In this document: one piece after another, positions 11 to 63,048 of the stretch
Layout: each line of letters starts with the position of its first letter
Numbering within the stretch: position 1 is the stretch's first letter
NCBI GenBank assembly: GCA_965248435.1
Contig: OZ252100.1
Coordinates: forward strand, 5,120,001 to 5,184,000
Length of the DNA: 64,000 bases
DNA from: Candidatus Latescibacterota bacterium
GTDB taxonomy: Bacteria; Latescibacterota; UBA2968; GCA-2709665
Direction: 5' to 3'
Made by a program: the position numbers and the translations under genes
The notes under the pieces: model-generated
Told to the model about the DNA's origin: nothing
Database searches by the model: none
Seen by the model: only the letters and a program-made list of their open reading frames with translations

Positions 11-1309
11 CTACAACACGAGACGGTCGAACGACTTGACGAAGACCAGAAAGTCCAGGAAGTCGACGCGACCGCTGTTGTCGAAGTCGAAGGCCGGAGC
101 GCTGCCGTTGAATGCAAGGGTAAAGGCGATGAAATCCAGAAAGTCGACCTTCCCGCTGTTGTCGAAATCGGTCCGCGGATCGGCGAATATCTGGACGCCG
201 GTTCCGGATATCGGGAGTTCGATGACCTCTCGCTCGGGATCGTTAGTGAAGATGCTGAGCGTACCCTGAAACTCACCTTCTGCGCCGGGTGAAACCGCGA
301 CCTTGAGGTCATAAGATGCACCGGCCTGTATTTCAAAGGAAGATTCCGACGGGGTAACGTTCTCCAGGTCCGATTCCACACCGGTGACGACCAGCTTGCC
401 CTCACCCGAATTCGTGATCCTGACGGTCCTTCGCATCGTGCGGCCCACCTCCGAATCCCCGAAGTCGACCCGGTCGACCGCGAGTTCGATCGCAGGGGGC
501 AGGGCGACGACCGCTATGGCCGGGATCGTGATCTCGAGGCTGGGCTGGTCGGTGTCGTTACTCGTCAGCGTCAGGCGGCCGGAGAGACTTCCATCCCGAA
601 CCGGCATCAACGTGATCTGAATCGTACCGGTTTCGCCCGGTTCGACCGTCAGTTCGGTAACGTCGACGGAGATCTCGTCCAGGTCCGAGCTGATTCCACT
701 GATGTCCAGCGTTCCGGTCCCGGTGTTCACGATATCGAGAGAGAGGGTACGTGAATCTCCGGGCTGGATCTCCGGCCCGAAGTCGAGCGTGTCGGCCGCC
801 TGGATCATGGGGGTCGAGATCAGCTGCTGAATGACTTCGGCGGCCTTTTGCCGGTCGAACCTTCCCGAGCCGCTCTTGTGCCGGACGACACCCTCCCGGT
901 CCACGACCAGCATCGCGTCGACCGAGCCGGCGGCGTTGACGCCGAGGGCGGTCACCCTTGAGGCCTGGAGGAGCAGTGGAAAGGAGACACCGGTCGTGTT
1001 TTCAAAGGCGTTTACCCCGGCCAGGCTGCCGTCCCACATGTCCAGCCCCAGGACCTGAACACCCTGATCTTCGAAGACCTGCCAGATTTCTGTTTCAATG
1101 GACGGACCCGTCCCGAAGCAGACACTTCAGTTGAATCCGAAGAAGTAGAGGACGAGCACGCCGTTTCTGAAATCGGTCGGAGCGTAATTCCTCCCATCGT
1201 GGCCGAGCAGCGAAAAATCAGGCAGTGCATCGCCCACGTTCAAGGCCTTGGCCTCGAGCGGCAGGGCAAGAAGACCCAGGATCAACCAAACCTTCGGTAC
1301 TCGTTCCAT
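11..1309 (-). CDS. Exported AhpC/TSA-like redoxin, probable selenoprotein (UxxC), with two Ig-like (choice-of-anchor D/HYDIN-type) domains and a C-terminal paired EF-hand/dockerin-like tail
   Basis: ORFs 1127..1330 and 11..1039 are in frame across TGA 1127-1129, reading YFFGFN-U-SVCFGTGP, which aligns to YFFGFR-C-PVCYGTGP of the neighbouring paralog. Signal peptide; DFDNSGKVDFLDF-type motif twice at the C-terminus. Confidence 0.85.
1100..1113 (-). promoter_or_regulatory. Putative bacterial SECIS hairpin (GGACG-GGTC-CGTCC)
   Basis: Hairpin begins 13 nt 3' of the in-frame TGA; identical sequence and spacing at 2916-2929. Confidence 0.7.
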
Positions 1310-1373: not shown

Positions 1374-2078
1374 TCAGTTCAAGGGCTGGCCGAACGAGGA
1401 AGCGAAGACCAGGAAATCGCCGAAATCGACGCGGCCGCTGGCGTCCAGGTCGTAGGCCGTTTCATCGGTGTCGTAGGCCTGAGCGAAAAGGACGAAATCC
1501 AGGAAGTCGACGCCGCCGCTCTGGTCAAAATCGGCCCGCGGATCGGCGAGGGCGGAGTCGCTGTCCAAAAGTCCGGAGATGACGTTGGCCGCCCTTCTGA
1601 CATCCTCAGGCTGGGAAGTGCTGATGTGACGGATCACTCCCCCCTGGTCGATGACCATCAACGCGTCGATCTGACCCACAATATTCACCTCGAACCTGTT
1701 CACAGCCGTTTGGGCGGTCCCATTCAACAGCAACGGAAATGTCGTGCCGGTGATCCTGCTGAAATTCAAAACTCCGGACTCACTCCCGTTCCACATCTCG
1801 ATGCCGAGCACCTGAAGGTCACGGTCTTTGAAGGCCTGCCATATTTCACGCTCGACGAACGGGCCCGTTCCATAACATACGGGACAGCGGAATCCGAAGA
1901 AATAGAGGACGAGGACCCTCCCGCTGAAGTCGTCAGATTCATACGTCCCTCCTCCGAGCGCGTCCAGGGCGAAACCGGGCGCCTGATCGCCGACGTTGAT
2001 CGCGGAGATCAGGGTGGGCAGTGAAAGGGATGCAGCGAGGACCCAAAGAATAAGATAAGCTGACGGCCGTCTTTTCAT
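1374..2078 (-). CDS. Exported AhpC/TSA-like redoxin (CxxC paralog) with paired EF-hand/dockerin-like tail
   Basis: Signal peptide, VGDQAPGF motif, CPVC, two DFD/DLD-xSGxVDF repeats. Confidence 0.85.
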   Translation of the reverse strand: MKRRPSAYLILWVLAASLSLPTLISAINVGDQAPGFALDALGGGTYESDDFSGRVLVLYFFGFRCPVCYGTGPFVEREIWQAFKDRDLQVLGIEMWNGSESGVLNFSRITGTTFPLLLNGTAQTAVNRFEVNIVGQIDALMVIDQGGVIRHISTSQPEDVRRAANVISGLLDSDSALADPRADFDQSGGVDFLDFVLFAQAYDTDETAYDLDASGRVDFGDFLVFASSFGQPLN

Positions 2079-2105: not shown

Positions 2106-3125
2106 TCAGCCCAGAGGCCTGTTGAAGGATGTGGCAAAGATGATGAGATCTCCGAAATCGACCCGGCCGCTGGCGTCCAGGTCGAACGCCGGGTCCGTGG
2201 TGTCGAAGGCCTGCGAGAAGCGGACGAAGTCCAGGAAATCGACCTCGCCGCTCCCGTCAAAGTCGGTTCGGGGATCGGCGAAGCGGACGACCGTCTCTCC
2301 GGAGAAGGGGATCATCAGCTCAGGCGTGGCAGGGTCGTTGCTCAAGACGCTCAACGTCCCGGAGAAGGGCCCCTCCTCGGCCGGCGTTACCGTGACGTTG
2401 ATCTCGTGACTCTCTCCGGGGGGGATACTTATCCCTGAGATGTTTGTCGTGATCTCAGACAGGTCGGACCGGACCCCCGTGATATCGAGAGGGGCCGTGC
2501 CAGAGTTGATGACTTCCAAAGTGAAGGTCCTGGATACGCCCGACTCGAGTTGCGAGCCGAGGGTCAGGGCGTTAACGCGCGTCTCAATCGCGGGCTTGTC
2601 GAGAAGCTCCGTAATGGTTTTCGCCGCGACGTCTATCGATTCCCCCGCGAAACGGATGATGCCCTGCTGGTCCGCGACGATGATGTCATCGATGCGACGC
2701 AAAACGCCACTGTAATCGGTCGCGTAGAGGTAGTTTTCGAGGGGCATACCATTCGCATCGAAATTCGTCCTGCTGGCGGCGCGCAGTAGAAGCGGAAAGG
2801 TCACGCCCGTGATCGCCCTGAAGTTGTCCACGCCCGTCGCGCTCCCGTTCCAGATGTCCAGGCCGAGAACCTGCACGCCCTGGTCCTCGAACGCCTTCCA
2901 TAGTTCTTTTTCGATGGACGGACCCGTCCCGTAGCAGATCGTTCAGTCGAAGCCGAAGTGATACAGGACGATGACCTTACCCTCGAAGTCCGCCGACCTG
3001 TAGGTGTCGCCAATGCCGTCATGCAGGGCAAAGGGGGTAAGCGGTCTTCCCACCTCGGCCGTCACGCTGGCAAAGCCGAGGCACAGGAGGACCGCTGTCA
3101 GGGCCGGTTTGGCAAGCTTGAACAA
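2106..3125 (-). CDS. Exported AhpC/TSA-like redoxin, probable selenoprotein (UxxC), one Ig-like domain and EF-hand/dockerin-like tail
   Basis: ORFs 2943..3125 and 2106..2876 are in frame across TGA 2943-2945, reading HFGFD-U-TICYGTGP. AAGGAG RBS before the TTG start. Confidence 0.85.
2916..2929 (-). promoter_or_regulatory. Putative bacterial SECIS hairpin
   Basis: GGACGGGTCCGTCC 13 nt after the TGA, identical to 1100-1113. Confidence 0.7.
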
Positions 3126-38238: not shown

Positions 38239-38256
38239 AATTGAGGGCTTAGGGGC

Positions 38257-38910: not shown

Positions 38911-38951
38911 CCTTGTGCATAGAGGATATCCCGGAAAGAAAGGAACCCGAC

Positions 38952-40470: not shown

Positions 40471-40736
40471 ACCCAACTGCTGGGTTTTTCGCCTACAAGG
40501 GGTTTCACGAACCGGTTCGAATAGAATGTTATCGGGGGCGGAGTCTGTGTAGTTCGAAGATATACCCACTTCAGACGAGAACGTTAGTGGCCACCTGCAA
40601 AGGCAATGCTATGAACAGAGATATGGTAGAGCTAGCACAGATCGAGGATTCTTTCCGGGGGAGGTTCGAAGCCACCGTCCGGGATAGAGCGAAGCAAAAA
40701 AACGTGGTGTAACAGCTCATTAAGGAGATATCGCAA

Positions 40737-41621
40737 ATGGTCGACATTCCCTATGTGGTATCCGAGGAAGAAAAGTACTATTTCGACCTCAGAGGCTACC
40801 TGATCATCCGTAACGTGCTTTCTCCGGAAGAAATCGGTGCCTGCAACCACGCCATCGACCAGTTTACCGACCAGATTGTGCCCGGCAACGAAATCGGGGA
40901 ACTCTCCCGGGGCTCAGAGGCTCTGGCCGGCAGCGGCCGGATCGAATTGCGCGGCATGCTCGGCTGGCCCGAACCCCACCGCAGCCCTTTCCGCAACCTA
41001 CTGATCCACCCGGTCGTCGTCTCCCGCCTCAACGAATTCTCCGGCAAGGGTTTCCGCCTGGACCACGGCCCCCTCCTCATCAGCGCCAAAAAAGGCACCG
41101 AAGGCCACTGGCTCCACGGCGGCGGCGAACCCTTCAGCCCGGCCGTCTGGTACCACCAGCAAAACGGCAAAATCTACTGCCGCGGCATCACCGTCGCCTG
41201 GCAGTTGGCCGTCTGCGGTCCCGGCGACGGCGGCTTCTGCATCGTGCCGGGAAGCCACAAACTCAGCGAACCCACGCCGGAGGAAGTCCGTTTCGCAGAA
41301 GATGATATGGACCTCATTGTCCAGCCTGAAATGGATGCCGGCGACGTCCTCTTCTTTGCCGAAACCGCCACTCACGGCGCCCTGCCCTGGAAGGCTGACC
41401 ACGACCGCAGGTCCGTCCTCTACAAATACACCTCCCGGGCCGCGGCCCGGGAGGTGGGCAAGCACTTTACGCCACAAGAGCGTTACGGCGAATGGGTCAA
41501 CGAACTCACCCCCGAACAGCAGGCTGTCCTCTACGGCCCCGGCGTGCACCACGGAGGGCGGCTGCCCCTGCTGGAGTCGGATGGGAAATCAGTGCAGATC
41601 GTGGAAATGGAGACCAAATAA
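40737..41621 (+). CDS. PhyH-family Fe(II)/2OG dioxygenase-like protein
   Basis: YFDLRGYL, GGFCIVPGSHK, GDVLFF.E...HG, RRSVLYKY. Confidence 0.88.
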   Translation: MVDIPYVVSEEEKYYFDLRGYLIIRNVLSPEEIGACNHAIDQFTDQIVPGNEIGELSRGSEALAGSGRIELRGMLGWPEPHRSPFRNLLIHPVVVSRLNEFSGKGFRLDHGPLLISAKKGTEGHWLHGGGEPFSPAVWYHQQNGKIYCRGITVAWQLAVCGPGDGGFCIVPGSHKLSEPTPEEVRFAEDDMDLIVQPEMDAGDVLFFAETATHGALPWKADHDRRSVLYKYTSRAAAREVGKHFTPQERYGEWVNELTPEQQAVLYGPGVHHGGRLPLLESDGKSVQIVEMETK

Positions 41622-42534
41622 TGGACGCCAAAGAACGCTACCTCTGGGATTTGAACGGGCACCTGATTGTCTGCAACGTCCTCAGCGAGGAGGATCTCAA
41701 AGCCGCAAACGATGCCATCGACTTCTGCGCCGACCGCATCGTGCCGGGCGATGAAAACCGCCTTTCCAGAGGCTCCACGTTCTGCAGGGCCTGGGGCGTC
41801 CCGGATTGCAGGGCACCAACCTGCTCGACATCGAAAAACCATACTGCGACATCTTCCGCAAACTGCTCGTCCACCCCGCCGTCATCTCCCGCCTGAAAGT
41901 CATGTGCGGCACAGGCTTCCGTCTCGACCACGGCCCCCAGTTTATCGGCGGTATCAAAGGCACCTCCGGGCACGCCCTCCACGGCTCCGGAGCCCCCCAC
42001 AAACCCTACGTGGCCTATCGCAACCGGAACGGTGAAATGCACTGCGCCGGCGTCACCGTCTCCTGGCAACTGGTCGAAGTGCCTGAAGGCAAAGGCGGGT
42101 TCGCCTGCGTGCCCGGCTCTCACAAATCCGACTTCGACATGCCCGAAGGCGTGCGCACCGTGGACGACGACATGGGCACCTCCATCAACCCCGAAGCCCA
42201 CCCCGGCGACGTTGTCTTCTTTATGGACGGGGCTCAGACCCACGGCACATATCCCTGGGTGAACGACCACGAGCGCCGTTCCATCCTTTACAAATTCGCC
42301 TCCCGTACCGCCGTTCGCTCAGGTGTCTCCGTCCAGATTGCTCCCCCGGAGATCTACTGGGATGAAAACATCGTCGACGGCATGACGCCGGAAGAGCGTG
42401 CTGTCATGTATGGCCCCTGCTCGGGCCACGGAGGCGTCGTCCCCTCCCTCGATGTCACAGAAGACGGCACCGTCATCGTGGAAGGTGGAGACGAGACCAA
42501 AGCACCCCCGACGCCTGATGGACCTCCGCAATGA
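41621..42534 (+). pseudogene. Second PhyH-family paralog with apparent 1-nt frameshift near 41780
   Basis: MDAKERYLWDLNGHL..SRGST switches frame to LQGLGRP..DHGP..PGSHKS..THGT. Confidence 0.8.
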
Positions 42535-47629: not shown

Positions 47630-47640
47630 ACAAGCTTCTT

Positions 47641-47707: not shown

Positions 47708-47743
47708 ATGGCAAATGCCTACACACATCAGTGTGGTATCCCG

Positions 47744-48556
47744 ATGCGACTCATGTATGCGTTCTCAGTGCTGATTGCTGGCCTTTTGATTTCTTGCGAA
47801 GGCAAACAGGGACCGACGGGTCCAGAAAATCTCACTTTCGCTGATCTGAATCTTGAGGCGGCCGTTCGGGCCTCGATCTCGCAGCCAACAGGAGATATCC
47901 TATCATCGGACGTCTCTGGACTTACCAGTCTAAATGCTAGTAGCAGAGGCATCGTGAGCCTGGATGGGATCGAAAACCTCACCGTGCTGGACTCGCTCAA
48001 TCTCCTTAACAATCAGATCAGCGAACTGTCCGCATTGTCAGGCCTTACCTCACTGAAGAGTCTCGATCTTGGTATCAATCAGATCAGCGAACTGTCCGCA
48101 TTGTCAGGCCTTACCTCACTGAAGAGTCTCGATCTTGGTATCAATGAGATCAGCGACATCTCTGCGCTGTCAGGCCTCACCTCGCTGGGGTCGCTCTATC
48201 TCTTTAACAATCAGATCAGCGAACTGTCCGCATTATCAGGCCTCACCGGGCTCAGGGATCTCCGTCTGTTCAACAACGAGATCAGCGACATCTCAGCGTT
48301 GTCGAGCCTCACCTCGCTGGAGATTCTCTATCTGAATAAGAACGAGATCAGTGACATCTCTGCGTTGTCAGGTCTCACCGCGCTGGAGGTTCTCAGTATC
48401 GAGACCAATGAGATCAGCGATATCTCAGGACTCGTCAACAACGAGGGACTCGGCTCAGGAGATTTGGTGGGCCTATCTCCTAACCCTCTGAGCGAGGAGG
48501 CGCTATCGGTTCAAATCCCGGCACTCAAGGCACGGGGGGTGACGGTTATCAATTAG
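47744..48556 (+). CDS. Internalin-type LRR lipoprotein
   Basis: Lipobox LISC; 22-aa N.IS..SALSGLT.L..L.L repeats. Confidence 0.9.
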   Translation: MRLMYAFSVLIAGLLISCEGKQGPTGPENLTFADLNLEAAVRASISQPTGDILSSDVSGLTSLNASSRGIVSLDGIENLTVLDSLNLLNNQISELSALSGLTSLKSLDLGINQISELSALSGLTSLKSLDLGINEISDISALSGLTSLGSLYLFNNQISELSALSGLTGLRDLRLFNNEISDISALSSLTSLEILYLNKNEISDISALSGLTALEVLSIETNEISDISGLVNNEGLGSGDLVGLSPNPLSEEALSVQIPALKARGVTVIN

Positions 48557-49399: not shown

Positions 49400-50506
49400 A
49401 TGAAAATCAACCGTGTCGATCTCTACGAAGTGGACGTGCCCGACCGTCCCTGGGCCTGGTCGGACGAGGTGTTCGGAATGCCGGCCCACCGGAAACACAC
49501 GATTCTTTTTCTCGTGGTCCGCACCGACGCCGGGGTAGACGGACTGGGTGAGGTGCCCCTGACGTTCGGCCGGGAGCTGGTGGAAGCGGAGGTGGCCGGG
49601 TGGGTGGGACGCGATCCGCTCAGCCTAGACCTCGCGGCCGCGACTTCGATGTCTGAACCCGACGCGGCATCTGTCGCGATACGGCGCGCCCTGGAATGTG
49701 CGGTCCTGGACATCAGGGGCAAGGTGCAGGGCTGTCCGGTGTCGGACCTGCTGGGCGGGGCGGTGCGCGAGCGGATACCGGTCTCTCTCTGCACGGGATA
49801 CAAGACGGTCGAGAACACGGCCAGGGATGCGGTGTGGGGCTGGGAGCAGGGGTTCCGTACCTATAAGATGAAGTGTATCGTGGAGGAGGAACTCCCCGAT
49901 CTGAGGGATCGGGTGGCCTATGTCGCCGACCGGGTGGAGGCGATCCATCGCGAGGTCCCGGAGATGGCGGTGCGCCCCGACATCCGCCGCCGTCTGAAAG
50001 AGGTCTGGGCAGCCGAGGAGCTGGCCCGGCGGCTGGAGGGACACTGCGTGGACTGTCTGGAGAGCCCGATCACGACCGGGGCGGAGGACGGCACGTTTTC
50101 GGAGTGGCGCCGCCTGCGAGGGCTCATTTCGTTCCCGATCGCCGAACACGCAGCGGAGGACCTCGCGCGGACCATGCGGTCGGCGGATGCCGTGGACTAC
50201 GTGATCATCAGCGCACATACGGCCGCAGAGAAGGTCCGCACGGCCGCGACCGTGGAGACGCTCGGGCTTCAGGCTTGGGTCCAGTCCATAGGGCTGGGGG
50301 TGGACAACGCCCTTGCCCTGCACCTGTGCGCCGCCGGAAAGAGTCTGACCCGTCCCAACGACATCGTCGGCCTCTGGGCCAAGGAAGACGACTGCGTGCG
50401 GGAGGCGTTCTCCGTAGAGGAAGGCACGGTCGCCGCGCCCGGGGGACCCGGCCTGGGGGTGACCCTGGACATGGAGGCCGTGGAACGATACGCAGTGGGC
50501 CGATGA
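49400..50506 (+). CDS. Mandelate racemase/muconate lactonizing enzyme family
   Basis: TDAG..G.GE, LDI.GK..G.PV..LLGG, KMK, PGLGV.LD. Confidence 0.9.
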   Translation: MKINRVDLYEVDVPDRPWAWSDEVFGMPAHRKHTILFLVVRTDAGVDGLGEVPLTFGRELVEAEVAGWVGRDPLSLDLAAATSMSEPDAASVAIRRALECAVLDIRGKVQGCPVSDLLGGAVRERIPVSLCTGYKTVENTARDAVWGWEQGFRTYKMKCIVEEELPDLRDRVAYVADRVEAIHREVPEMAVRPDIRRRLKEVWAAEELARRLEGHCVDCLESPITTGAEDGTFSEWRRLRGLISFPIAEHAAEDLARTMRSADAVDYVIISAHTAAEKVRTAATVETLGLQAWVQSIGLGVDNALALHLCAAGKSLTRPNDIVGLWAKEDDCVREAFSVEEGTVAAPGGPGLGVTLDMEAVERYAVGR

Positions 50507-50521
50507 AGGGGGCGACGAGTT

Positions 50522-50614
50522 GGTTCGAATCCCCGCTTCGGGACCCATGAAAAAACAAAGGGTTACGTCATTGAGACGTAACCCCTTTTTAGTGCCAATT
50601 GCGCCACTGCTACC
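50522..50614 (+). repeat. Degenerate tRNA-Leu 3'-end copy + conserved tail, unit 3
   Basis: GGTTCGAATCCCCGCTTCGGGACCC..AAAGGGTTACGTCATTGAGACGTAACCCCTTTTT..GCCAATTGCGCCACTGCTACC. Confidence 0.9.
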
Positions 50615-50632
50615 GGCATACCGGAGACCGCG

Positions 50633-51022
50633 CTAACGCGATTCGTCCTCAGTGTCAAAATGGGCCGGCATGGTGATCTCGATGACCTCCCAGTCATCGG
50701 AATACTCCAGTACCTCGTGCTTGACCCCGGGCGGCTGATACCAGGCGTCGCCGGACTCCACACGGATCTCACCGATGTCTTCGAAGTAGAGCTGTGCCCA
50801 GCCCTTGATCATGTAGACCATCTGGAAGTCCAGATCGTGGGAGTGATAGCCAATCGGGCCCTTGCAGGGTTGGTCGGCGCGAATGATGTGCGCCAACACC
50901 TTGCCTCCCGTGGCGTCCCTGATCCCCAGGTCGCGGTAGCCGAAGTAGGGCCGCAGACCGTCCTTGACCCACTGGGCATCCTTTGCGTGCGCCGCAAACG
51001 TTTTGGTCGTTTTCTCGGTCAT
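50633..51022 (-). CDS. Cupin-domain protein
   Basis: GLR..F.YRDLGI..AT.G, H.H..DFQ, GD..YQPP..KH. Confidence 0.88.
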   Translation of the reverse strand: MTEKTTKTFAAHAKDAQWVKDGLRPYFGYRDLGIRDATGGKVLAHIIRADQPCKGPIGYHSHDLDFQMVYMIKGWAQLYFEDIGEIRVESGDAWYQPPGVKHEVLEYSDDWEVIEITMPAHFDTEDESR

Positions 51023-51217
51023 CGTGCTACTCCTATCGCCATCAGATAGTGAACCTGCTATCCACGAGGATTACCCAGCCGGTGTGACGGTGGATTCGGC
51101 CGAAGCTCATCCGAGGCTTTGGTCCGACCCGGAACATGTCTTAACTGTCCGCAATTTAATCAATGATCTCGAAGGTGTCAAAAACTGTCGGTGCCCGGCC
51201 TTCTTGCAGTCATTCAG

Positions 51218-51270
51218 GCGTAACCTTTTTTCTTTGGTAATTGCGCAACTGCACCCATTTTGCTACCGTT
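51218..51270 (+). repeat. Tail-only remnant of the tRNA-att repeat
   Basis: GCGTAACCTTTTT..ATTGCGCAACTGC..CCATTTTGCTACCGTT. Confidence 0.7.
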
Positions 51271-51566
51271 CACAGACGAGCGGAAGAGTCCAGATTGTTG
51301 TCTTTCCCTACCACGAACAGGTTCGGATTAAGACCCTATGGGGTGGATTCTGCGAAGTTCGTGATACACCCCCGCGCCAGACAATATTGTTGGTTCGCTG
51401 ATACCGTAGTTGAACTAAACCGCTTCGCGGTGGCCTGCTGCAAGGCCTTTGCTCTTTGACAACCAGGATATGATACCGTGCAAGTCCGGAGCCACTTTGC
51501 AAATGGCTCTGTGCTTCGCATCCTCCTTCTGCTAACAACGTCCACCATCAGCAGAAGGAGAGAGCC

Positions 51567-52418
51567 ATGACCAAGCATCGGAAGCGAATGATCCGGGACA
51601 TGCAGTTGAAAGGTTTAGATCCGGATACGCAGAAGGCGTACGTGAGCGGAGTGGCCGGGCTGTGTCGTTACTGCAAGACACCGCCCGACCGGCTCAGCGA
51701 AGAAGAGATCCGCGCCTATCTGCACTATCTGATCACTGAGCGGAAGCTGTCCCAAAGCTATGTCAACCAGGTATACAGCGGACTGAAGTTTCTGTTCCAA
51801 ACGACGTTGAAGCGTGACTGGGTCGAGTGGGGCATCCCGCGTGCGAAGAAGGCAAAGAAGCTCCCGGTGGTACTCTCCACAGAGGAAGTGCAGCGGCTGA
51901 TCGACAGGACCAACAACCTGAAACACCGTACGCTGCTGATGGTCATTTACTCTGGTGGGCTCAGACTGAGTGAGGCCATCGGGCTAAAGCTTTCCGATAT
52001 CGACAGTGACCGGATGCTGATCCGTGTGCGGGGCAAAGGCCAAAAAGAGCGAGAGACGCTTCTGGCCCAGGAGGCGTTAAAGGCACTCCGCGTCTACTGG
52101 CGCAGCTACCAGCCTCGCGATTGGCTGTTCCCTGGCGAAAGACCGGATGCACCGCTCCACGCCCGCAGTGTCCAGAAAGTCTTCGAGCAGGCCTGCCGAC
52201 GCGCCGAGATACAAAAGCGTGCGAGTGTCCATTCTCTGCGTCACAGCTTCGCCACACATCTTCTGGACAACGGAGTGGACGTCCGTTTCGTCCAACAACT
52301 GTTGGGTCACACGAGCCTGCGAACCACCACCGTCTACCTCCACGTCACCACTCGCGATCTCACGCGTATCAGAAGCCCCCTGGACCTTTTGGGAGATGAA
52401 GACAAGCCGACCTTGTAG
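51567..52418 (+). CDS. Tyrosine recombinase with N-terminal SAM-like domain
   Basis: YSGGLRLSE, GKG.K.R, HSLRHSFATHLL, LLGH.S..TT..Y.HV. Confidence 0.95.
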   Translation: MTKHRKRMIRDMQLKGLDPDTQKAYVSGVAGLCRYCKTPPDRLSEEEIRAYLHYLITERKLSQSYVNQVYSGLKFLFQTTLKRDWVEWGIPRAKKAKKLPVVLSTEEVQRLIDRTNNLKHRTLLMVIYSGGLRLSEAIGLKLSDIDSDRMLIRVRGKGQKERETLLAQEALKALRVYWRSYQPRDWLFPGERPDAPLHARSVQKVFEQACRRAEIQKRASVHSLRHSFATHLLDNGVDVRFVQQLLGHTSLRTTTVYLHVTTRDLTRIRSPLDLLGDEDKPTL

Positions 52419-52430
52419 CAGAGGTCGGCC

Positions 52431-53615
52431 ATGTCACAGCCTCTCGAAGTCGCCGACATCTTCCGAGTCCACGGAGATGGGTATCAAGCACACTACGGTG
52501 ATCACATGCCGCTTCGGCAGAAGCGGGCCATGCGAGCCATCCAGATCTGCCGAACAGCTGCGCTGGGCGGACACGTGGAAGTGTGCGGGCAGTGCGGAAC
52601 GAAGCGGATCGCCTACAACTCCTGCCGCAACCGGCACTGTACGAAGTGCCAGTTCCTGACGACCGAACGATGGATCGACGCTCGTAAAGAGGATCTCCTT
52701 CCGATCCCATACTTCCACGTCGTCTTCACGTTGCCCGAGCCCCTGCGGCCGCTTGCTCTGCGGAACCAGAAGCTGATCTACAACCTGGTGTTTAAAGCCG
52801 CATCGCAGAGTCTTCTGGAGCTGGCGCGGGAACGGAAGTATCTTGGAGCGCAGATCGGCTTTACCGCCGTGCTTCATACATGGTCTCAGACACTCATCGA
52901 CCACCCGCATCTGCACTGTATCGTAACTGGAGGTGGGCTGACCCACGACGGTCAGGAATGGAAGGCGGCGCGACGGGGCTTCTTTCTACCCGTAAAAGTT
53001 CTGTCCCGACTGTTCCGGGGGAAGTTCCTCGCGTTCCTGAAGGACGCGCACCAGGAAGGCCTTCTGGCGTTTCCGGGATTGAGTGCTCCACTGGAAGATG
53101 CGTTCTTCGATCTGCTTCGGGGTCTTTACCAGAGGGAATGGACCGTTTACGTCAAGCCGACTTTTGCGGGTCCAGAACGCATCGTGGCCTATCTGGGACG
53201 ATACACGCACCGGATCGCCATCTCCAACCACCGGCTGGTCGCCTGTGAGGGCGACCGGGTCTCATTCCACTACCGGGACCGCCAGGCCGGCAACCGACGG
53301 AAGCTGATGACCGTCGATGCCTACGAGTTCATCCGGCGGTTCCTGCTTCACATCCTGCCGGATGGCTTCGTGAAGATCCGGCACTACGGACTGCTCAGCA
53401 ATCGGGGTCGCCGGAAAAAGCTCGCACGATGCCGTAGGCTCCTGGGCACTGTATGCACGACGGCTTCCGCAGCCACAAAGGCGACCTGGCAGGACCTTCT
53501 GTTCCGGGTAACAGGCATCGATCTTCAGGTCTGTGCGCAGTGCGGAGGCCCTATGCTCACAGTCGGAACCCTCGCGCCTCTGCGAGCGCCTCCGGCACAT
53601 GTTGCCGTAGCTTGA
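52431..53615 (+). CDS. IS91-family-like HUH transposase with Zn-binding domain
   Basis: CRTAALGG, SCRNRHC..C, FHVVFTLP, HTW...HPHLH, YLGRY.HR, RHYG.L.N. Confidence 0.93.
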   Translation: MSQPLEVADIFRVHGDGYQAHYGDHMPLRQKRAMRAIQICRTAALGGHVEVCGQCGTKRIAYNSCRNRHCTKCQFLTTERWIDARKEDLLPIPYFHVVFTLPEPLRPLALRNQKLIYNLVFKAASQSLLELARERKYLGAQIGFTAVLHTWSQTLIDHPHLHCIVTGGGLTHDGQEWKAARRGFFLPVKVLSRLFRGKFLAFLKDAHQEGLLAFPGLSAPLEDAFFDLLRGLYQREWTVYVKPTFAGPERIVAYLGRYTHRIAISNHRLVACEGDRVSFHYRDRQAGNRRKLMTVDAYEFIRRFLLHILPDGFVKIRHYGLLSNRGRRKKLARCRRLLGTVCTTASAATKATWQDLLFRVTGIDLQVCAQCGGPMLTVGTLAPLRAPPAHVAVA

Positions 53616-53820
53616 GCTCCTACACCATCCCTTGTCCGCAAGCCCAACCACCCAACACGGCAGTAGTCTGTCCACTCTTTGAGCTTGGTAGAGCGACTAT
53701 GGGATCCTGCGACATCGGCCCCTCCAAACAGCTTCAAATACGGTCCGATGACTGGGCCAGCCCAGCGGTCCTTACACAAGAATCACTCATCCAATCCCCA
53801 TAGGCAGGTGAAGCGGCTTC

Positions 53821-53895
53821 GTTCAACACCGTGTATCCGGAATCCCGCTCCCGTCCACGCTTCTCCGACTCCGGATACACGCTTAATCGTTATAC
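53821..53895 (+). other. attC-like site
   Basis: GTTCAAC (RYYYAAC)...CGTGTATCCGGA / TCCGGATACACG...GTTATAC; 75 bp. Confidence 0.6.
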
Positions 53896-54005
53896 GAAAT
53901 TACCCATCCCTAGATAGACGTGGGGCGCTGCAAAAACAGAACCACTCCTGTACTTTTATACCGCTTCTGTATTTATCTGTAACAGGTCGATAAGGGAGGG
54001 ATATT

Positions 54006-55205
54006 TTGAAAATAACTGCCATCGAGACGATCCGGATCGAAGAGTTCTCCAATATGCTGTGGGTACAGATCCATACGGATGAGGGCTTGGTAGGGCTCGG
54101 TGAGACTTTATACGGACCACAGTCCGTAGAGGGCCATATCCATGGGATCATCGCGCCCTATCTGATCGGTCAAGATCCCCTGTTAATCGATCGCCACACC
54201 AGTCATCTGATCGGCTACGTTGGATTCAACGGATCCAGCGCTGAACAGCGAGGGCGCTCGGCCATCGATATAGCTCTCTGGGACGTGTGGGGACAGGCCA
54301 CGGGCCAACCCATTCATCAGTTGTTGGGTGGGGCCGTACGGGAGGATATTCGCGTTTATAATACCTGCGGTGGCTATGGGTATGCTCGCTTTAAGCCCGT
54401 GTACGATACTTCCGGTTTCGAATTACCCGACACGGGCGCTAAGGGTCCTTACGAGGATCTAGACGCCTTCCTCAACCATGCGGACGAATTAGCGCACAGC
54501 CTGTTGGCCATGGGGATTACGGGAATGAAGATCTGGCCTTTCGATGCAGCCGCAGAGGCCTCGAACGGGGCCTACATCTCCGCAGCCGATCAGGAGCAAG
54601 CATTACTGCCGTTCGCCCAAATTCGAGAAGCCGTTGGCAACTCTATGGACGTCATGTGCGAATTGCATGGATTATGGAATCGCCCTACAGCCAAGACAAT
54701 TGTTGCTGCGTTGGAAGAATTTAATCCGCTCTGGATCGAAGACCCCGTCCAGATGGATCAGCTTGAAAGTCTGGGTGAGGTACAGGCATCGACCCGTGTG
54801 CCCATCGCTACAGGTGAAACGCTGGGGGGCAGAGCCCAATTTAAAGACTTGCTGCAGCGCAATGGGTGCGGGGTGGTGATTATGGACGTCGCTTGGTGCG
54901 GGGGCATCTCGGAAGCACGAAAGATCGGGGCCATGGCCGAAGCCTGGCATGTTCCCGTTGCCTTCCACGACTGCACCGGCCCCGTGGTGCTAGCCGCTTC
55001 GACCCATCTGGCACTTAACGCCAGAAACTGTTTCGTTCAGGAAATCGTGCGGGCCTTCTACTACGATTGGTACAAAGAGGTGGCCACTCATCTGCCGCCG
55101 CTGAAAGAAGGACGCATTTCGGCCCCCGACGGTCCTGGACTGGGGCTCAAACTCATCCCCGACAGATTAAAGACCCGTGACGTACACGTCCGGCGAAGCG
55201 AGTGA
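54006..55205 (+). CDS. Mandelate racemase/galactonate dehydratase-like enolase-superfamily enzyme
   Basis: MKITAIET, HTDEGLVGLGET, DIALWD..G, KIWPFD, WIED, GE.L, HDC.GP. Confidence 0.92.
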   Translation: MKITAIETIRIEEFSNMLWVQIHTDEGLVGLGETLYGPQSVEGHIHGIIAPYLIGQDPLLIDRHTSHLIGYVGFNGSSAEQRGRSAIDIALWDVWGQATGQPIHQLLGGAVREDIRVYNTCGGYGYARFKPVYDTSGFELPDTGAKGPYEDLDAFLNHADELAHSLLAMGITGMKIWPFDAAAEASNGAYISAADQEQALLPFAQIREAVGNSMDVMCELHGLWNRPTAKTIVAALEEFNPLWIEDPVQMDQLESLGEVQASTRVPIATGETLGGRAQFKDLLQRNGCGVVIMDVAWCGGISEARKIGAMAEAWHVPVAFHDCTGPVVLAASTHLALNARNCFVQEIVRAFYYDWYKEVATHLPPLKEGRISAPDGPGLGLKLIPDRLKTRDVHVRRSE

Positions 55206-55354
55206 GCACCAGTGATGGTGCGTGCATTATCACCGCCATGAATGTCAATATTGAGAGAGGCAACCACCCGCCTCCGCGGGACAGCAGCCGTCGGCCATGC
55301 TGACCGTTACACCCAAGCGGCCAGATTGGATAGGGCGCGCGCAGAGAGAATAGG

Positions 55355-56086
55355 ATGAATCACAAAGACGATAAACCTATCGGACTACGATCTTATGAAA
55401 GTTGGGCAGAACGCTATGCCGCGGCTGTAGACTCAAAACCTCCCAATGCACACTGTGAACGCCCTGCTATGCTGTCATTGCTCCCAGAAATCAAGGGAAA
55501 GCATGTGCTCGATGCCGGATGTGGTCCAGGTTGGTATGCTGAGCATTTAGTCTCCAGTGGCGCCAAAGTTACTGCTATTGATGTCACACCAAAGATGGTG
55601 GAAATTACAAAGGAGAGATTGGGCACGTCGGTAGATGTGTACGAGGCAGATCTGAGTAAACCTCTCGACTTTCTGGAGAGTGGATCAGTCGACTGCATCG
55701 TTTGCTCGCTAACGCTACACTACATCGAAGATTGGGCAGATGTCTTTACGGAGATGTACCGCATACTCCGCGAATCAGGCCATTTGGTGTTCTCCACACA
55801 TCATCCCTTCAACCCCTCAGTACTGGAACAAGGCAAGTACTTTGAGACAGAGCTGGTTGAAGATGTATGGGGAAGTTTTGGCAAGCCTAAAGTCAAGGTG
55901 CAGTTTTTTAATCGACCCCTAAGTGAGATGATTCTGCCCTTACATACGGCGGGTTTTCTTGTCGAACAGATTATCGAACCACTCCCTACTGAAGAATGCA
56001 AAGAACGGTATCCGGAGTTTTATAAGAGTGTGTCACAATGTCCTTGGTTTCTTTGTGTCCGAGCAAAAAAGAAATTGAAGGCATGA
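55355..56086 (+). CDS. Class I SAM-dependent methyltransferase
   Basis: VLDAGCGPG, SL.LHYIEDW, LVFSTHHP. Confidence 0.92.
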   Translation: MNHKDDKPIGLRSYESWAERYAAAVDSKPPNAHCERPAMLSLLPEIKGKHVLDAGCGPGWYAEHLVSSGAKVTAIDVTPKMVEITKERLGTSVDVYEADLSKPLDFLESGSVDCIVCSLTLHYIEDWADVFTEMYRILRESGHLVFSTHHPFNPSVLEQGKYFETELVEDVWGSFGKPKVKVQFFNRPLSEMILPLHTAGFLVEQIIEPLPTEECKERYPEFYKSVSQCPWFLCVRAKKKLKA

Positions 56087-56189
56087 GGCTATAGCGCGCG
56101 CACGGCAGCCGGCGCCTGACTGACACCTCGTTTCAGTCTGCGCCCCGCCTGGGGATGAATCTTTCACATCGCTGGGGGAATTCCACGAA

Positions 56190-57122
56190 ATGGATCGAAC
56201 CACGCTTGGCAGAACGGGCCTCGAGGTCAGCGTCGTAGGAATCGGCGCCGGAGGTCCGAGCCGGATCGGCAAGAGAACCGGTAAGACGGACCGGGAGTCG
56301 GCCGACATCGCCCTGAAGGCGTTCGAGGCCGGCGTCAACTTCATCGACACGGCTGAGGGATACGGTACCGAGCCGATCATCCGGCTGGCTCTCGAGGACA
56401 TTCCACGTGACCAGCTGATCATCTCGACCAAGAAAAGCTCGAAGGGTCGAACAGCCGACTCTGTCGTCACAAGCTGCGTAGAGAGCCTGGAGCGGCTCGG
56501 GACCGACTACATCGACGTCTACAGCCTCCACGCCGTCTTCCCCGATGACTACGCGCGATGCTGCGAAGAGCTCTACCCGGAGCTGGTCAAACTGCAGGAA
56601 GCGGGCAAGATCCGCTACATCGGCATCACGGAGACGTTCAACTCGGACAAGGCGCACGACACGCTGAAAGCCGCCCTCGCCGACGACCTGTGGGACGTCG
56701 CCATGGTCGGGTTCAACATCCTGAACCAGACCGCGCGGGACGCTGTTTTCGCGAGGGCGATCGAACAGGACGTCGGGATTCAAGTGATGTTCGCCGTTCG
56801 CACAGCAATGAGCGACCCCGCGTTCCTCGTCGAGGTAGTCGGCGGGCTGATCGAGGCCGGTCAGCTGGATGCGGGCGATCTGGACGACCTCGGCCATCCG
56901 CTCGACTTCCTCGTCCACGAGAGCGGCGCGGTCAGCATTCCCGACGCCGCCTACCGCTTCTGCCGATACGAGCCCGGCACGCACGTCATTCTGTCCGGAA
57001 CCGGCAATCCCGATCACCTGCAGGAAAACATCGCGAGCTTCGAGCGCCCACCGCTTCCTCAGGCCGACGTCGACCGCCTGAAGCACATCTTCCGCAACGT
57101 CGATTCCATCACCGGTCAGTAG
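56190..57122 (+). CDS. Aldo/keto reductase
   Basis: LGRTGLEVS, NFIDTAEGY, ISTK, SL.RLGTDYID, GKIRYIG. Confidence 0.93.
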   Translation: MDRTTLGRTGLEVSVVGIGAGGPSRIGKRTGKTDRESADIALKAFEAGVNFIDTAEGYGTEPIIRLALEDIPRDQLIISTKKSSKGRTADSVVTSCVESLERLGTDYIDVYSLHAVFPDDYARCCEELYPELVKLQEAGKIRYIGITETFNSDKAHDTLKAALADDLWDVAMVGFNILNQTARDAVFARAIEQDVGIQVMFAVRTAMSDPAFLVEVVGGLIEAGQLDAGDLDDLGHPLDFLVHESGAVSIPDAAYRFCRYEPGTHVILSGTGNPDHLQENIASFERPPLPQADVDRLKHIFRNVDSITGQ

Positions 57123-57237
57123 GTGACCGCTCGATTCGACTTCGCGGTCGTGGGGTGTGGCTGCTCTCTGCGCATTTTGTTTTCTGAGGCCACGGCCACT
57201 TCGTCAGCCCGCAGACCGAACGTTACACGCAAGCGGC
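57122..57237 (+). other. Degenerate attC-like palindrome ending CGTTACACGCAAGCGGC (the same ending occurs at 55305-55321)
   Basis: Nested TTCG/CGAA, GCGG/CCGC and GTGGCTG/CGGCCAC pairs directly after the stop codon. Confidence 0.4.
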
Positions 57238-57305
57238 GCAAGAGTTCCCACCACCCCCACTCGGATTAATTGTGCACAGGAAAAATCGGAAAGCAGGCAG
57301 ACCTA

Positions 57306-57905
57306 GTGCGTTTTCATTTTATCCGACACGGTAAGAGAGACCGCAAGATCGGCGATCCTCCATTGACATCAGAGGGTCGAGAAGAGGCAGAACTACTCGC
57401 CAGGAAGTTAGCATCAAACGGCATCGCACGAATTTTCAGCAGTCCGCTGGCACGAACAAGAGAGACAGCGGAGATCATCGCCACCATTTTGAATCTTGAA
57501 GTTACTGAAGATTCACGGCTACGTGAACGAATGAATTGGGGTGACATCGAAGGCCAACCTTTCGACGAGTTCGTAACCGAATGGGAGCGGTGTAGCAGAG
57601 AACGAGACTACCAACCCAGTGTTGGCGATTCAAGCCTTGGCGCTGGTAGACGCATTGAGGCTTTTGTATCCGATCGCTACCTTCAAGCATTCAAAGACAC
57701 TGTGATTGCGGTGACCCATGGCGGCATCCTGGCAGACTTCCTTCTCAACGTTTTCTCATCTGAAGAACTGGGTCGCGTGTGTTCGAAATTTTGTGATGAC
57801 CCATACAGTGGCGAAGTCATGCGTGAGTGCTCGATTACAACCGTTTCGTATGACGGGAACCGGCATGGACTCGACGCTGTTGGGGTCGTCCTATTTGGGG
57901 ATTAA
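57306..57905 (+). CDS. Histidine phosphatase family protein
   Basis: FIRHG, SSPL.RT.ETA, LRE, VTHGG. Confidence 0.92.
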   Translation: MRFHFIRHGKRDRKIGDPPLTSEGREEAELLARKLASNGIARIFSSPLARTRETAEIIATILNLEVTEDSRLRERMNWGDIEGQPFDEFVTEWERCSRERDYQPSVGDSSLGAGRRIEAFVSDRYLQAFKDTVIAVTHGGILADFLLNVFSSEELGRVCSKFCDDPYSGEVMRECSITTVSYDGNRHGLDAVGVVLFGD

Positions 57906-57994
57906 TTCTGAGCAGAAGTCGAATATTCACTACGTTTACGGCGGTCCAGCATATATCAAACTTATCTTGAATGTGATCCCTATCAGGAGTGATC

Positions 57995-58155
57995 ATGGTT
58001 GCCCGTGAAGTGGAGAGAGTTGAAGTCGTTGACTATGACGAATTATGGCCCGCCGCATTCCAGAGAGGACGTGAAGTGCTCATCAATGCGATCGGCGAGT
58101 ACGTGGTTGGCAGCATTCAACACGTCGGCAGTACTTCAGTTCACGGGCCCACTGG
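57995..58155 (+). pseudogene. N-terminal fragment of a GrpB-family nucleotidyltransferase-like gene
   Basis: VEVVDYD..WP..F....L...IQHVGSTSV.G, after which the similarity is lost. Confidence 0.75.
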
Positions 58156-58333
58156 CTTCAGAAAGGTGGAGAGCTGTATAACAAGCCAACGCACTACGAC
58201 TCCAGACGAATTGCCTGTGTTTCATCAACGAATTCATAAACACAGGCTATTTTTGTTGATCGGCGACGGAGGACGAAGCGATCTTTCACGACCACGCAGA
58301 CATAGTCACAGATTAAATCCGTAAGGAGGTCAA

Positions 58334-58846
58334 ATGCCACTCAAATACAAAGAAGGCCAGACGTTTCCATCGATCAGCTTGATCGACGATCGAGGGAACG
58401 AAGTTTCGATTGCAGAGGTGGCGAGCCGACAGCCGCTGATCCTTGCGTTCTACCGCGGGCCCTGGTGACCGAAGTGACAGGTTCAACTGAAGGAACTGGT
58501 CCAGTTCCATACACGAACAGAAGTGGCTTCCTGCCGAATCGCCGTCGTTTCCGTGGATCCCCCAAGGGTTCAGGAAGCTTTCAAAGCGGGTTTGGGTGCT
58601 CGGTTCCCCTTTCTGAGTGACGAGAATCTGACGCTCACCGACGAGCTCGGCATCCGCGAGTCGACGGATACGCGTCACGGTCCGCTGCCCGTGCCCTTTA
58701 CGTTCGCGCTGCTGCCCGATCTGACCATTCATCGAATTTTCAACGGTTGGTACTTTGTCGGCAGACCCACGCCGGATGAGCTGAGGATCACGATTCGGGA
58801 AATGATGGCCAGGGCCGTGAAGGACCTCGACTTCAGGGGAGAGTAA
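58334..58846 (+). CDS. AhpC/TSA-like redoxin with two in-frame TGA codons (W-U-P-K-U), probable UxxU selenoprotein
   Basis: RBS AAGGAGGT; LILAFYRGPW-TGA(58466)-PK-TGA(58475)-QVQL, in frame with ORF 58523..58846 (VSVD, FPFLSD). Confidence 0.85.
58492..58508 (+). promoter_or_regulatory. Putative SECIS hairpin GGAACTG-GTC-CAGTTCC
   Basis: Perfect 7-bp stem 14 nt after the second TGA; GGTC apex as in the other two. Confidence 0.7.
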
Positions 58847-58968
58847 GACGGCGATTTGGCCCTGAATGAAGTCACACGCGCCAATTTTCTTTCTGCCTGT
58901 AACGAAAAAGGAGGGGCCAGGGGCAGTTCTGACGATAAGATTGTTCATAGCCCCCACTAGCCTCTACC

Positions 58969-59067
58969 GGGCAGTGGGGCGCGCCCCGTCGGGGTTCGAA
59001 TCCCCGCTTCGGCACCCATGAAAAAACGAAGGGTTACGTCATCAAGACGTAACCCCATTTTTGTGCC
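58969..59067 (+). repeat. tRNA-Leu 3' half + conserved hairpin, unit 4
   Basis: GGGCAGTGGGGCGCGCCCCGTCGGGGTTCGAATCCCCGCTTCGGCACC..AAGGGTTACGTCATCAAGACGTAACCCC. Confidence 0.92.
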
Positions 59068-59114
59068 TCGAAACCTCGGCGTCCGTATAGCGTCCATTCA
59101 ACCTTACGCCTCAC

Positions 59115-61999: not shown

Positions 62000-63048
62000 G
62001 GATTCAATGACTAAGTGCAACACTTGGACTTGAAGACTTCAGCTGGTGTTTTGAAGTTAAGACATTTTCTTGGTCGGTTGTTGATCCGGTTCTGAATTTT
62101 CTTTAACTCGTGTTTGCTGACCTTTGAGAAGTCTGTCTTCTTGGGGAGGTATCTGCGGACCAGACCGATAGCGTTTTCCACAGCGCCTCGCTCCCAGCTG
62201 TGGAACGGTTTGCAGAAATAGGATTTGGTGCCAAGCACCTCGTTGACCCGTTGATGTTGGCCGTTTTCGGATCCGTTGTCATATGTGATGCTCTTCCTCA
62301 TGTGGGGAGGATGTCGCCCAAGGCGTCGATTAATCGCTTCGGCGACCTCCGAGGGTCCGTTCTTTGCCAGCTTAGCCAGGTGTAGGTATCTCGACGATCG
62401 CTCAAGACAAGCGCCAACGGCCTGTTTGCTCTCACGAGAGATGATGGTGTCGGATTCCCAGTGGCCAGGTTGTTTCCGTTTTTCGATGTAACGGGGACGT
62501 CGATCGATCGAAATACGGCCTGGAATGTGGCTTTCCCGGTGTTTTCGGGTATGCCACCGCGGCTTTCGTTTTTTGTGAGCTCGGGATAAGCAAGCAACCA
62601 GATCCCGCTGCTTGTGCACCTTTGGATCGTAGATATACTGGTAGATGGCTTCGTGGCTGATACCCGCGCTCGGACGCTCCTCGGGAAGCCTCCCAGCGAT
62701 CAACTCGGGAGACCATCCTTGCTTGAGTTTGGTCTCGACATATCGCCGGATAACCGGATTCTTCAGCCGTTTCCGCTTGCCGGCCTCCCGCTTACGTTTC
62801 TCAGCCCTTCTGTGAGCCTGGAGGCCCGAGTAACTCTCAGCTATCGGGGACGGATTACGTTTCAACTCTCTTGAAATCGTGCTGGCGCTCCGGTCAAGGG
62901 CCTTGGCAATATCTCTAAGGCTTGCACCAGTGGCTCGACAAAGCGCAATCTGCTCGCGTTCGTCTATCGTAAGATGCTTGTAATTGTTTCCCATACACTT
63001 AGGATAGGACAGTTGCTACCCTAAGTGTTGCACTTCCTTATTGAACTC
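62000..63048 (-). mobile_element. IS30-family insertion sequence
   Basis: About 26-bp imperfect inverted repeats (TTCAAT....AAGTGCAACACTT) at 62000-62025 and 63023-63048 flanking the transposase. Confidence 0.88.
62011..62994 (-). CDS. IS30 transposase
   Basis: YKHLT..ER, STISRELKRN, WSPE.I, GHWE.D, ITYDNG.E, WERG..EN, N.RPRKCL...TP.E. Confidence 0.96.
   Translation of the reverse strand: MGNNYKHLTIDEREQIALCRATGASLRDIAKALDRSASTISRELKRNPSPIAESYSGLQAHRRAEKRKREAGKRKRLKNPVIRRYVETKLKQGWSPELIAGRLPEERPSAGISHEAIYQYIYDPKVHKQRDLVACLSRAHKKRKPRWHTRKHRESHIPGRISIDRRPRYIEKRKQPGHWESDTIISRESKQAVGACLERSSRYLHLAKLAKNGPSEVAEAINRRLGRHPPHMRKSITYDNGSENGQHQRVNEVLGTKSYFCKPFHSWERGAVENAIGLVRRYLPKKTDFSKVSKHELKKIQNRINNRPRKCLNFKTPAEVFKSKCCT

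Follow-up and report, generated by a model that had tools for sequence, protein, structure and literature searches.

A 64,000-nucleotide stretch of a Candidatus Latescibacterota genome (positions 5,120,001 to 5,184,000 of contig OZ252100.1, assembly GCA_965248435.1; hereafter the window, in whose own numbering coordinates are given) contains, at 58334-58846 on the forward strand, what we consider, with a probability of about 0.8, to be an intact gene for a peroxiredoxin (Prx)-like selenoprotein with a UxxU active site, in which both UGA codons are read as selenocysteine (Sec) by means of one downstream hairpin. Both the anatomy of this redoxin gene and its decoding mechanism had been proposed in an earlier sequence-only reading, and the present analysis supports them.

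In the proposed mechanism, translation would run from the ATG at 58334 to the TAA at 58844, with the single hairpin at 58492-58508 recruiting a SelB-type factor loaded with Sec-tRNA(Sec), so that Sec would be inserted at the UGA at 58466 and again, three codons later, at the UGA at 58475. The 170-residue product would adopt a peroxiredoxin-like thioredoxin fold, with Sec45 capping the N-terminus of helix 46-65 and Sec48 within the first helical turn, in the geometry of a CxxC site. The protein would most likely alternate between a diselenol(ate) and an intramolecular diselenide and reduce either a peroxide or a disulfide/selenenylsulfide. We infer Sec insertion at both codons, the diselenide chemistry and the type of substrate from the observations that follow.

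The redoxin gene and its two TGA codons

Direct reading of the frame gives an ATG at 58334, with the Shine-Dalgarno sequence AAGGAGG (58323-58329, + strand) 4 nt upstream as read from the sequence, and a TAA at 58844-58846. Translation of the 170 codons with TGA as U meets only two non-standard steps, at TGA1 (58466-58468, predicted Sec45) and TGA2 (58475-58477, predicted Sec48), which yield the active-site stretch FYRGPW-U-PK-U-QVQL; the strong ribosome-binding site and the long frame with two TGA codons that the sequence-only reading had described are all present. In Pfam searches, the read-through protein matches AhpC-TSA (PF00578) over residues 8-128 (8.4e-19; 68.2 bits, cut-off 26) and Redoxin (2.3e-14). 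Under the standard code, calling of open reading frames (ORFs) splits the frame into pieces of 44, 51 and 107 amino acids, and the gene call in the window is the 107-residue fragment (ORF 58523-58846).

A locus scan with TGA translated as U, using one genome per species, identified 15 loci encoding relatives (L001-L015) from at least seven phyla, with taxon labels comprising Latescibacteria, Binatia, Spirochaetales, Pseudomonadota, Acidobacteriota, Acidimicrobiales and SAR324. The motif U-P-K-U is present in 11 of the 15 (L001-L006, L008-L011 and L013), a recurrence of the same TGA pair that places its occurrence at the redox positions beyond chance, as had been argued from the single gene. 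The remaining loci have U-P-K-C (L012), S-P-K-U (L007), U-P-R-D (L014) and C-P-R-D (L015). Codon 45 is accordingly TGA in 13 of the 15 loci (the 11 with U-P-K-U, L012 and L014), TGT in L015 and TCA in L007, and codon 48 is TGA in 12, with a TGT (Cys) codon in L012, which is nested inside the UxxU clade. L007, in which the TCA stands at L007:100-102, is incomplete at the edge of a contig and lacks three residues in the conserved GPLPVPFTF stretch; the copy is possibly decaying or misassembled. The taxon label of L007, Enterobacteriaceae, looks doubtful, as does that of L002, which shares synteny with the Binatia locus L004.

In the 12 genes that could be aligned without gaps, in-frame stops are limited to codons 45 and 48, and the ratio of nonsynonymous to synonymous substitution rates (dN/dS) amounts to 0.29 over codons 2-44 and to 0.13 over codons 49-168. 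All of these genes share the ATG, and a GGAG-like, Shine-Dalgarno-like motif precedes it in most of 11 homologous loci. As judged from these sequence comparisons, the redoxin coding sequence is under purifying selection on both sides of the TGA codons.

Two protein searches covered collections drawn from approximately 15 billion predicted proteins. A collection of 5.8 billion clusters yielded 571 matching proteins at E <= 0.001. The best 120 of these are at most 137 amino acids long and cover at most 71% of the query, and therefore all of them appear to have been called downstream of the TGA codons. In a library clustered at 50% identity, each listed representative with at least 69% identity is a fragment that starts past residue 49. 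The claim that the gene is hidden from annotation thus extends from the 107-residue call in the window to the relatives. A close full-length Cys-Cys form was found neither among the best 120 matches nor among the listed representatives of the 50%-identity library.

More distant relatives do cover the active site. Among the best 150 representatives, 104 span it, and their motifs are CxxE (51), CxxD (41), CxxC (7), DxxE (2) and WxxE, SxxD and GxxD (1 each), in agreement with the earlier statement that family members carry C-P-x-C/D/E. Position 45 is Cys in 99 of these 104 representatives and position 48 in 7, to which L015 adds a Cys at position 45 and L012 one at position 48. The Sec/Cys pairs by which bacterial selenoproteins are recognized consequently exist at both positions. 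TGA or Cys thus does occur at each of the two sites among the 15 loci and the 104 representatives; consistent absence of these from homologs had been named beforehand as an observation that would speak against the prediction.

A quick tree was computed from a 57-row alignment comprising the window gene, 14 of the 15 loci (the partial L007 was left out) and 42 of the 150 representatives, hand-picked by coverage. The 12 UxxU rows and L012 are not separated from one another; 12 of these 13 rows form a clade (SH-like approximate likelihood ratio test, SH-aLRT, 84), with L010 unplaced at the base. A 42-row CxxE/D clade (SH-aLRT 89) is separate from them, as are two CxxC rows on long branches. The window gene groups with the Latescibacteria locus L001 (SH-aLRT 92). 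L012 (UxxC) is the sister of L009 (UxxU), both being from the same taxonomic order, and this nested position suggests that the Cys of L012 arose by a secondary change from Sec. The branches between phyla are short, from which it appears that the UPKU clade was spread by horizontal transfer. We tentatively entertain, as a possibility well below even odds, the notion that the UPKU clade represents an obligately selenium-dependent redoxin that moves between phyla; the lack of a Cys-Cys version among the close listed matches would then suggest a diselenide chemistry that is not replaceable by sulfur. L014, from a metagenome-assembled genome (MAG) of Dehalococcoidia, and L015, from a Rubrobacterales MAG, form a sister subfamily, with a single Sec in the U-P-R-D motif of the former (L014:3169-3171) and C-P-R-D in the latter. 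The hairpin of L014, GGCGC-AGUU-GCGCC at approximately 11 nt past the TGA, is a different one, so that the selenocysteine insertion sequence (SECIS) of L014 and that of the UPKU clade are apparently not homologous.

An AlphaFold2 model built from the 57-row alignment is confident (predicted local distance difference test score 91.2, predicted TM-score 0.88), and its helix 46-65 begins directly past U45. The best Foldseek matches in the PDB are Bcp4 (3hjp), BcpB, AhpE and ResA, with BCP/PrxQ proteins on top and TM-scores normalized to the query (TMq) of up to 0.83; the values for 3hjp (E = 3.8e-13, TMq 0.83) and 5epf (TMq 0.77) assign the model to the Prx fold. In alignments to proteins of solved structure, U45 and U48 correspond to the two Cys residues of ResA W-C-P-H-C, and alignment to the BCP-type protein 5epf pairs U48 with the peroxidatic Cys, U45 with Thr and Arg41 with the Prx Pro. 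The first predicted Sec would hence occupy the nucleophilic position, that of the N-terminal Cys of CxxC, and the second the resolving position, which aligns with both the BCP peroxidatic Cys and the second Cys of the ResA CxxC. Peroxiredoxins are characterized by the signature P-x3-T-x2-C; we rejected assignment to a canonical peroxiredoxin (BCP/PrxQ, AhpE), as this signature is not kept (Arg41, Sec45, Sec48). Translation, the structural model and the Foldseek matches concur in placing a UxxU motif in a thioredoxin-like fold, at the CxxC-equivalent site where the Prx-like thiol:disulfide oxidoreductase family has UxxC or UxxU. The product is probably cytoplasmic, as no signal peptide is evident in the N-terminal sequence.

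The downstream hairpin and probable Sec decoding

The SECIS-like hairpin GGAACTG-GTC-CAGTTCC (58492-58508, + strand) can be drawn either with a 6-bp stem and the loop GGUCC or with 7 bp and the loop GUC. It lies 14 nt past TGA2 and 23 nt past TGA1, the same distances that had been read from the sequence at the outset, and the respective UGA-to-loop distances are 20 and 29 nt. The isolated hairpin has a minimum free energy (MFE) of -7.6 kcal/mol. Perfect 6-bp stems with a 5-nt loop and an initial loop G are rare in the window, with 16 occurrences across its 128,000 strand positions. The published model of the bacterial SECIS (bSECIS) specifies a stem of 4-16 bp, a loop of 3-9 nt with G among its first two positions, a UGA-to-loop distance of 16-37 nt and an MFE of at most -7.5 (PMC13188914). 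The hairpin agrees with this model for both UGA codons (GGUCC loop, 6 bp, 29 and 20 nt, -7.6), for the MFE only narrowly; since both distances fall within the 16-37-nt range, one hairpin qualifies for both codons.

Across 14 aligned sequences (13 distinct), none of the six core pairs is broken and 96.7% of cells are paired overall. Two of the pairs show compensatory change, in 5 cells altogether. At pair 31-39, C-G is replaced by U-A in L006, L010 and L011, both substitutions being synonymous (CTG>TTG and CAG>CAA); at pair 27-43, G-C gives way to A-U in L009 and L012. The covariation score of 0.231, against 0.142 ± 0.026 in shuffles, was reached by none of 500 shuffles, and when the 3' arm is shifted by 1-3 columns, no more than 60% of cells remain paired. 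In RNAalifold predictions over 60 and 91 columns, the hairpin is the only consensus helix of at least 4 bp; apart from a 3-bp CAG...CUG mini-helix, neither a lower SECIS stem nor a second hairpin is conserved in these alignments. Moreover, the single-UGA variants L012 (UGA1 only) and L007 (UGA2 only) have the same hairpin at the same spacing. The suggestion that one SECIS serves both codons is thereby strengthened: the hairpin is the sole conserved one downstream, it shows compensatory changes and its spacing fits both UGAs, which are very probably decoded through this one conserved in-ORF SECIS.

Two more redoxin genes in the window, both on the reverse strand, bear on whether the host decodes Sec. 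Gene A (11..1309) and gene B (2106..3125) are candidate selenoproteins in which a redoxin domain is fused to DUF1573, with predicted Sec61 encoded by the TGA at 1127-1129 in gene A (FGFN-U-SV-C) and by that at 2943-2945 in gene B (FGFD-U-TI-C). When the TGA is read through, the AhpC-TSA domain extends across it in both genes, in gene A over residues 25-144 and profile positions 1-123 of 124, and in each gene a hairpin, GGACG-GGUC-CGUCC, lies 13 nt past the TGA. Three hairpins of the window thus share a GGUC apex 13-14 nt from a Cys-aligned TGA. Because two additional TGA/Cys-pair redoxin genes with GGUC-loop hairpins are present, the host very probably decodes Sec. For the N-terminal region of gene A, three homologs were found, all N-terminally truncated (314-345 amino acids), which fits a stop at that site. 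Both products appear as secreted redoxin(UxxC)-DUF1573/ASH Ig-like fusions, and both genes are shortened by standard gene calling; between them lies a Cys paralog without DUF1573 (1374..2078, - strand; FGFR-C-PV-C, TGT at 1884-1886), whose product likewise appears to be secreted. Global reassignment of TGA (codes 4 or 25) was rejected, because the redoxin gene itself terminates on TGA in seven loci (L001-L003 and L009-L012); gene B of the window likewise ends on TGA.

Several observations weigh against decoding of both codons by this hairpin and deserve to be considered together. No selA, selB, selC or selD was found in the 64-kb window, out of a contig of about 5.66 Mb, by tRNA and Rfam scans and by Pfam searches of the larger ORFs. 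The 71-nt region folds no better than shuffled sequences (z = -0.19), so that the signal is a conserved local hairpin and not overall folding stability, and the hairpin itself is weak, its -7.6 kcal/mol lying at the edge of the model threshold. It overlaps the conserved ELVQF codons, so that part of its conservation is due to coding, and the second compensatory pair (27-43) entails a His>Ser replacement and hence is not silent. The covariation comes from 14 sequences, 13 of them distinct, and kinship alone can exceed shuffles in the absence of structure. UGA1 is 23 nt from the stem, far from the approximately 11 nt required by E. coli fdhF. Finally, no Rfam family matches the hairpin in gathering or permissive scans. 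The only tRNA in the window is tRNA-Leu. A tRNA-Sec candidate near the redoxin gene was discarded: the segment 58963-59017 is a tRNA-Leu 3' fragment, ARAGORN reports no tRNA at that site, and the match to tRNA-Sec in Rfam does not rise above noise (14.6 bits, E = 9).

The alternative that fares best accepts hairpin-aided read-through and posits that a selC*-type tRNA (tRNA-ReC) decodes one or both UGAs as Cys, so that the product would be UxxC, CxxU or CxxC. Such tRNAs are reported in approximately 56% of genomes with UXXU hydrogenases, compared to approximately 2.3% of other Sec-type genomes, and one or both UGAs in the former might then be read as Cys (PMC13582414); moreover, position 48 tolerates Cys, as is evident from L012. 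However, there is no selC*-type tRNA in the 64-kb window, and if Cys were equivalent, TGT/TGC versions would be expected to be common, whereas the best 120 matches include no full-length Cys-Cys homolog; the two other UxxC genes of the window also retain TGA beside a TGT/TGC codon. On balance, we regard incorporation of Cys as unlikely.

In a second alternative, which we consider very unlikely, the hairpin at 58492 serves UGA2 only, and UGA1 depends on another signal, namely the CAG...CUG mini-helix after UGA2, a protein factor or the sequence context. The 23-nt spacing of UGA1, greater than the 13-14 nt of the three other TGAs in the window, is compatible with this possibility, as is the 3-bp helix that RNAalifold places 9 nt past UGA1, with 4 bp in some sequences and one both-sided change. 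Against it, the mini-helix falls short of every bSECIS threshold (4 bp or more for the stem, -7.5 or lower for the MFE), and in half of the sequences G is absent from the first two positions of its loop. In L012, where UGA1 stands alone, the main hairpin persists and has the compensatory changes that are also present in the UxxU sister of this locus, L009, and the 29 nt from UGA1 to the loop fall within the published range.

That the locus is a pseudogene or a sequencing artefact, with the 107-residue ORF (58523-58846) as its functional product, if any, could be surmised from the 44-, 51- and 107-residue pieces, from the exclusively truncated database forms and from the position of the gene at the island edge next to a truncated GrpB remnant, but is hardly credible given that 11 independent genomes have the same two TGAs without any other stop or frameshift, that upstream dN/dS is 0.29 with the ATG and ribosome-binding site conserved, and that the confident fold would lose its strands 15-39 and the larger part of helix 46-65 (to residue 63) in a product of 107 residues; conservation of the TGAs and the dN/dS values contradict this explanation. 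Thus, we favor the interpretation that both UGA codons are read as Sec with the aid of the hairpin at 58492-58508.

The island at tRNA-Leu

The redoxin gene is part of an island that follows the core genes pgk, tpiA, secG and tRNA-Leu(gag) (34843-34929). Four units succeed the tRNA gene, each terminating in a copy of the tRNA 3' end (21-55 nt) and a terminator-like hairpin. The fragment at 50492..50546 (+) opens the unit that includes the redoxin gene, and the 55-nt copy at 58963..59017 (+), 87% identical to 34875-34929, closes it as an att-type direct repeat that begins 117 nt past the redoxin stop codon; further copies are located at 40317-40371 and, in shorter form, near 38096. The terminator-like hairpin GGGTTACGTC...GACGTAACCC with a T run (59031..59056, +) is repeated past each tRNA-Leu fragment in a five-unit alignment. 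The tandem array spans 34843-34929, ~38096-38260, 40317-40480, 50492-50650 and 58963-59111, and its copies partly share a 66-nt segment after the hairpin, which is also found at 47639 and 51229.

Only the last unit of the array (50546-58963) contains an integrase, the tyrosine recombinase at 51567..52418 (+; Pfam Phage_integrase, 2.2e-43, and Phage_int_SAM_4). It is adjoined by an IS91-family Y2 transposase at 52431..53615 (+; Pfam Y2_Tnp, 2.3e-61, and Zn_Tnp_IS91), after which come genes for an enzyme of the MR/MLE enolase superfamily, a methyltransferase, an aldo-keto reductase and a histidine phosphatase, a truncated GrpB remnant and, as the last cargo, the redoxin gene. The remnant (57989-58324, +), directly upstream of the redoxin gene, is a 111-residue ORF that matches only the first 39 of the 159 profile positions. 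The sequence-only reading had located the gene on mobile cargo just ahead of an att unit, which is borne out by its position as the last gene before the tRNA-Leu fragment in the integrase-bearing unit. We infer that it arrived in this genome by horizontal transfer, as the last cargo of the island unit.

Pfam scans of 47 flanking ORFs, chosen from 78 called at the 15 related loci, revealed no common neighbor gene and no mobile-element gene within 3 kb, and synteny is limited to closely related loci (L002/L004 and L008/L013). Since the neighbors differ across the 15 loci, the redoxin gene appears to be a stand-alone module, and its island position is specific to the window genome.

Other features of the island and its flank include an ORF just past the last tRNA-Leu fragment (62011-62994, -), whose HTH_38 and rve (integrase core) domains are those that a DDE transposase typically has. 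There are two tandem repeats within coding sequences, one with a 126-nt period and 8 copies (39034-40215) inside a TPR_12-rich protein (38838-40292) and the other with a 66-nt period and 6 copies (47911-48438) inside a leucine-rich-repeat protein (47708-48556). The second island unit contains two adjacent PhyH (phytanoyl-CoA dioxygenase-like) ORFs (40737-42534, +), followed by a 512-residue protein that has internal repeats of 73 nt and weakly matches the T4 gp19 tail-tube domain (E = 8.8e-4, below the cut-off).

Implications and comparison with known systems

The window gene illustrates the loss of two-UGA selenoprotein genes from annotation: the call in the window and all listed close relatives are fragments. 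The UPKU clade is without a dedicated curated model, and because no NCBIfam model reaches its cut-off, annotation pipelines that depend on these models will probably not retrieve it in full length. The clade is a well-sampled bacterial UxxU group, with 13 genomes from at least seven phyla and more than 100 clusters of truncated proteins in public genomes and metagenomes. It offers one covarying SECIS at invariant spacing together with natural single-UGA variants and therefore is suited to testing whether one in-ORF SECIS serves two nearby UGAs. If our interpretation is correct, the L012 and L007 variants and the fixed spacing would constitute a natural system for studying the reach of a single SECIS and the reloading of SelB within three codons. 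In the window, moreover, a SECIS-bearing gene appears to travel as island cargo into a host with other candidate selenoprotein genes.

The sequence-only reading had regarded UxxU as rare and the use of one bacterial SECIS for two UGAs as mechanistically unusual. This overstated the novelty, since UxxU Prx-like families and single-SECIS decoding of UxxU have already been described in print (PMC9312934, PMC13188914, PMC4989117). The closest counterpart is the 'Prx-like thiol:disulfide oxidoreductase', which reviews give as a high-confidence predicted selenoprotein family with PF00578, UxxC or UxxU and 1-2 Sec residues (PMC9312934, PMC13188914). Its members resemble the window gene in the PF00578 domain, in having Sec at a CxxC-like position and in the existence of a UxxU variant; unlike that family, the UPKU clade is without a full-length Cys form among its close listed relatives. 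The Global Ocean Sampling (GOS) study likewise describes UxxU in its Prx-like 2 family (PMC2398784), and a GOS read, FIRGAW-U-PK-C-SLQL, is close to the active-site stretch of the window protein (PMC2398784 supplement). The exact UPKU motif occurs 0 times in four supplementary files of that study (PMC2398784), and a literature search for it returned unrelated matches only.

SelL is similar to the window gene in its UxxU motif and Prx-like thioredoxin fold. In bacteria, the SECIS of SelL is reportedly, according to the abstract of the original paper, placed so as to serve either or both codons. SelL, described from marine bacteria and aquatic animals, forms a diselenide bond (PMC2397514), and one SECIS is stated to act on two UGAs two codons apart (PMC4989117). 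The best NCBIfam match of the window protein is indeed 'SelL-related redox protein' (NF040769; residues 9-111). We nevertheless rejected membership in SelL/NF040769, because the score of 41.6 bits is below the curated cut-off of 120 and the tested relatives, at 26-43 bits, do no better.

BCP/PrxQ and AhpE provide the best structural matches (3hjp with TMq 0.83, 5epf and 1xxu), and Sec48 corresponds to their peroxidatic Cys; they differ in the P-x3-T-x2-C signature that the window protein has lost and share only 15-20% sequence identity with it. In ResA/TlpA, W-C-P-x-C matches W-U-P-K-U residue for residue, with a fold TMq of 0.68-0.71. ResA, however, is membrane-anchored, extracytoplasmic and Cys-using, whereas the window protein has no signal sequence evident by eye, and the sequence match to it amounts to only 24.5 bits.

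With respect to decoding, the nearest parallel is found in the UXXU Group 4 [NiFeSe] hydrogenases, in which two UGAs two codons apart are followed by one conserved SECIS that has G among its first two loop nucleotides (PMC13582414). Both the use of one SECIS for two codons and the tRNA-ReC alternative were raised for these enzymes in 2026 (PMC13582414). The hydrogenases belong to an unrelated protein family, and their Sec residues are metal ligands and not a redox pair. Viewed against these systems, the window gene is a good example of a catalogued kind of protein and not a new principle.

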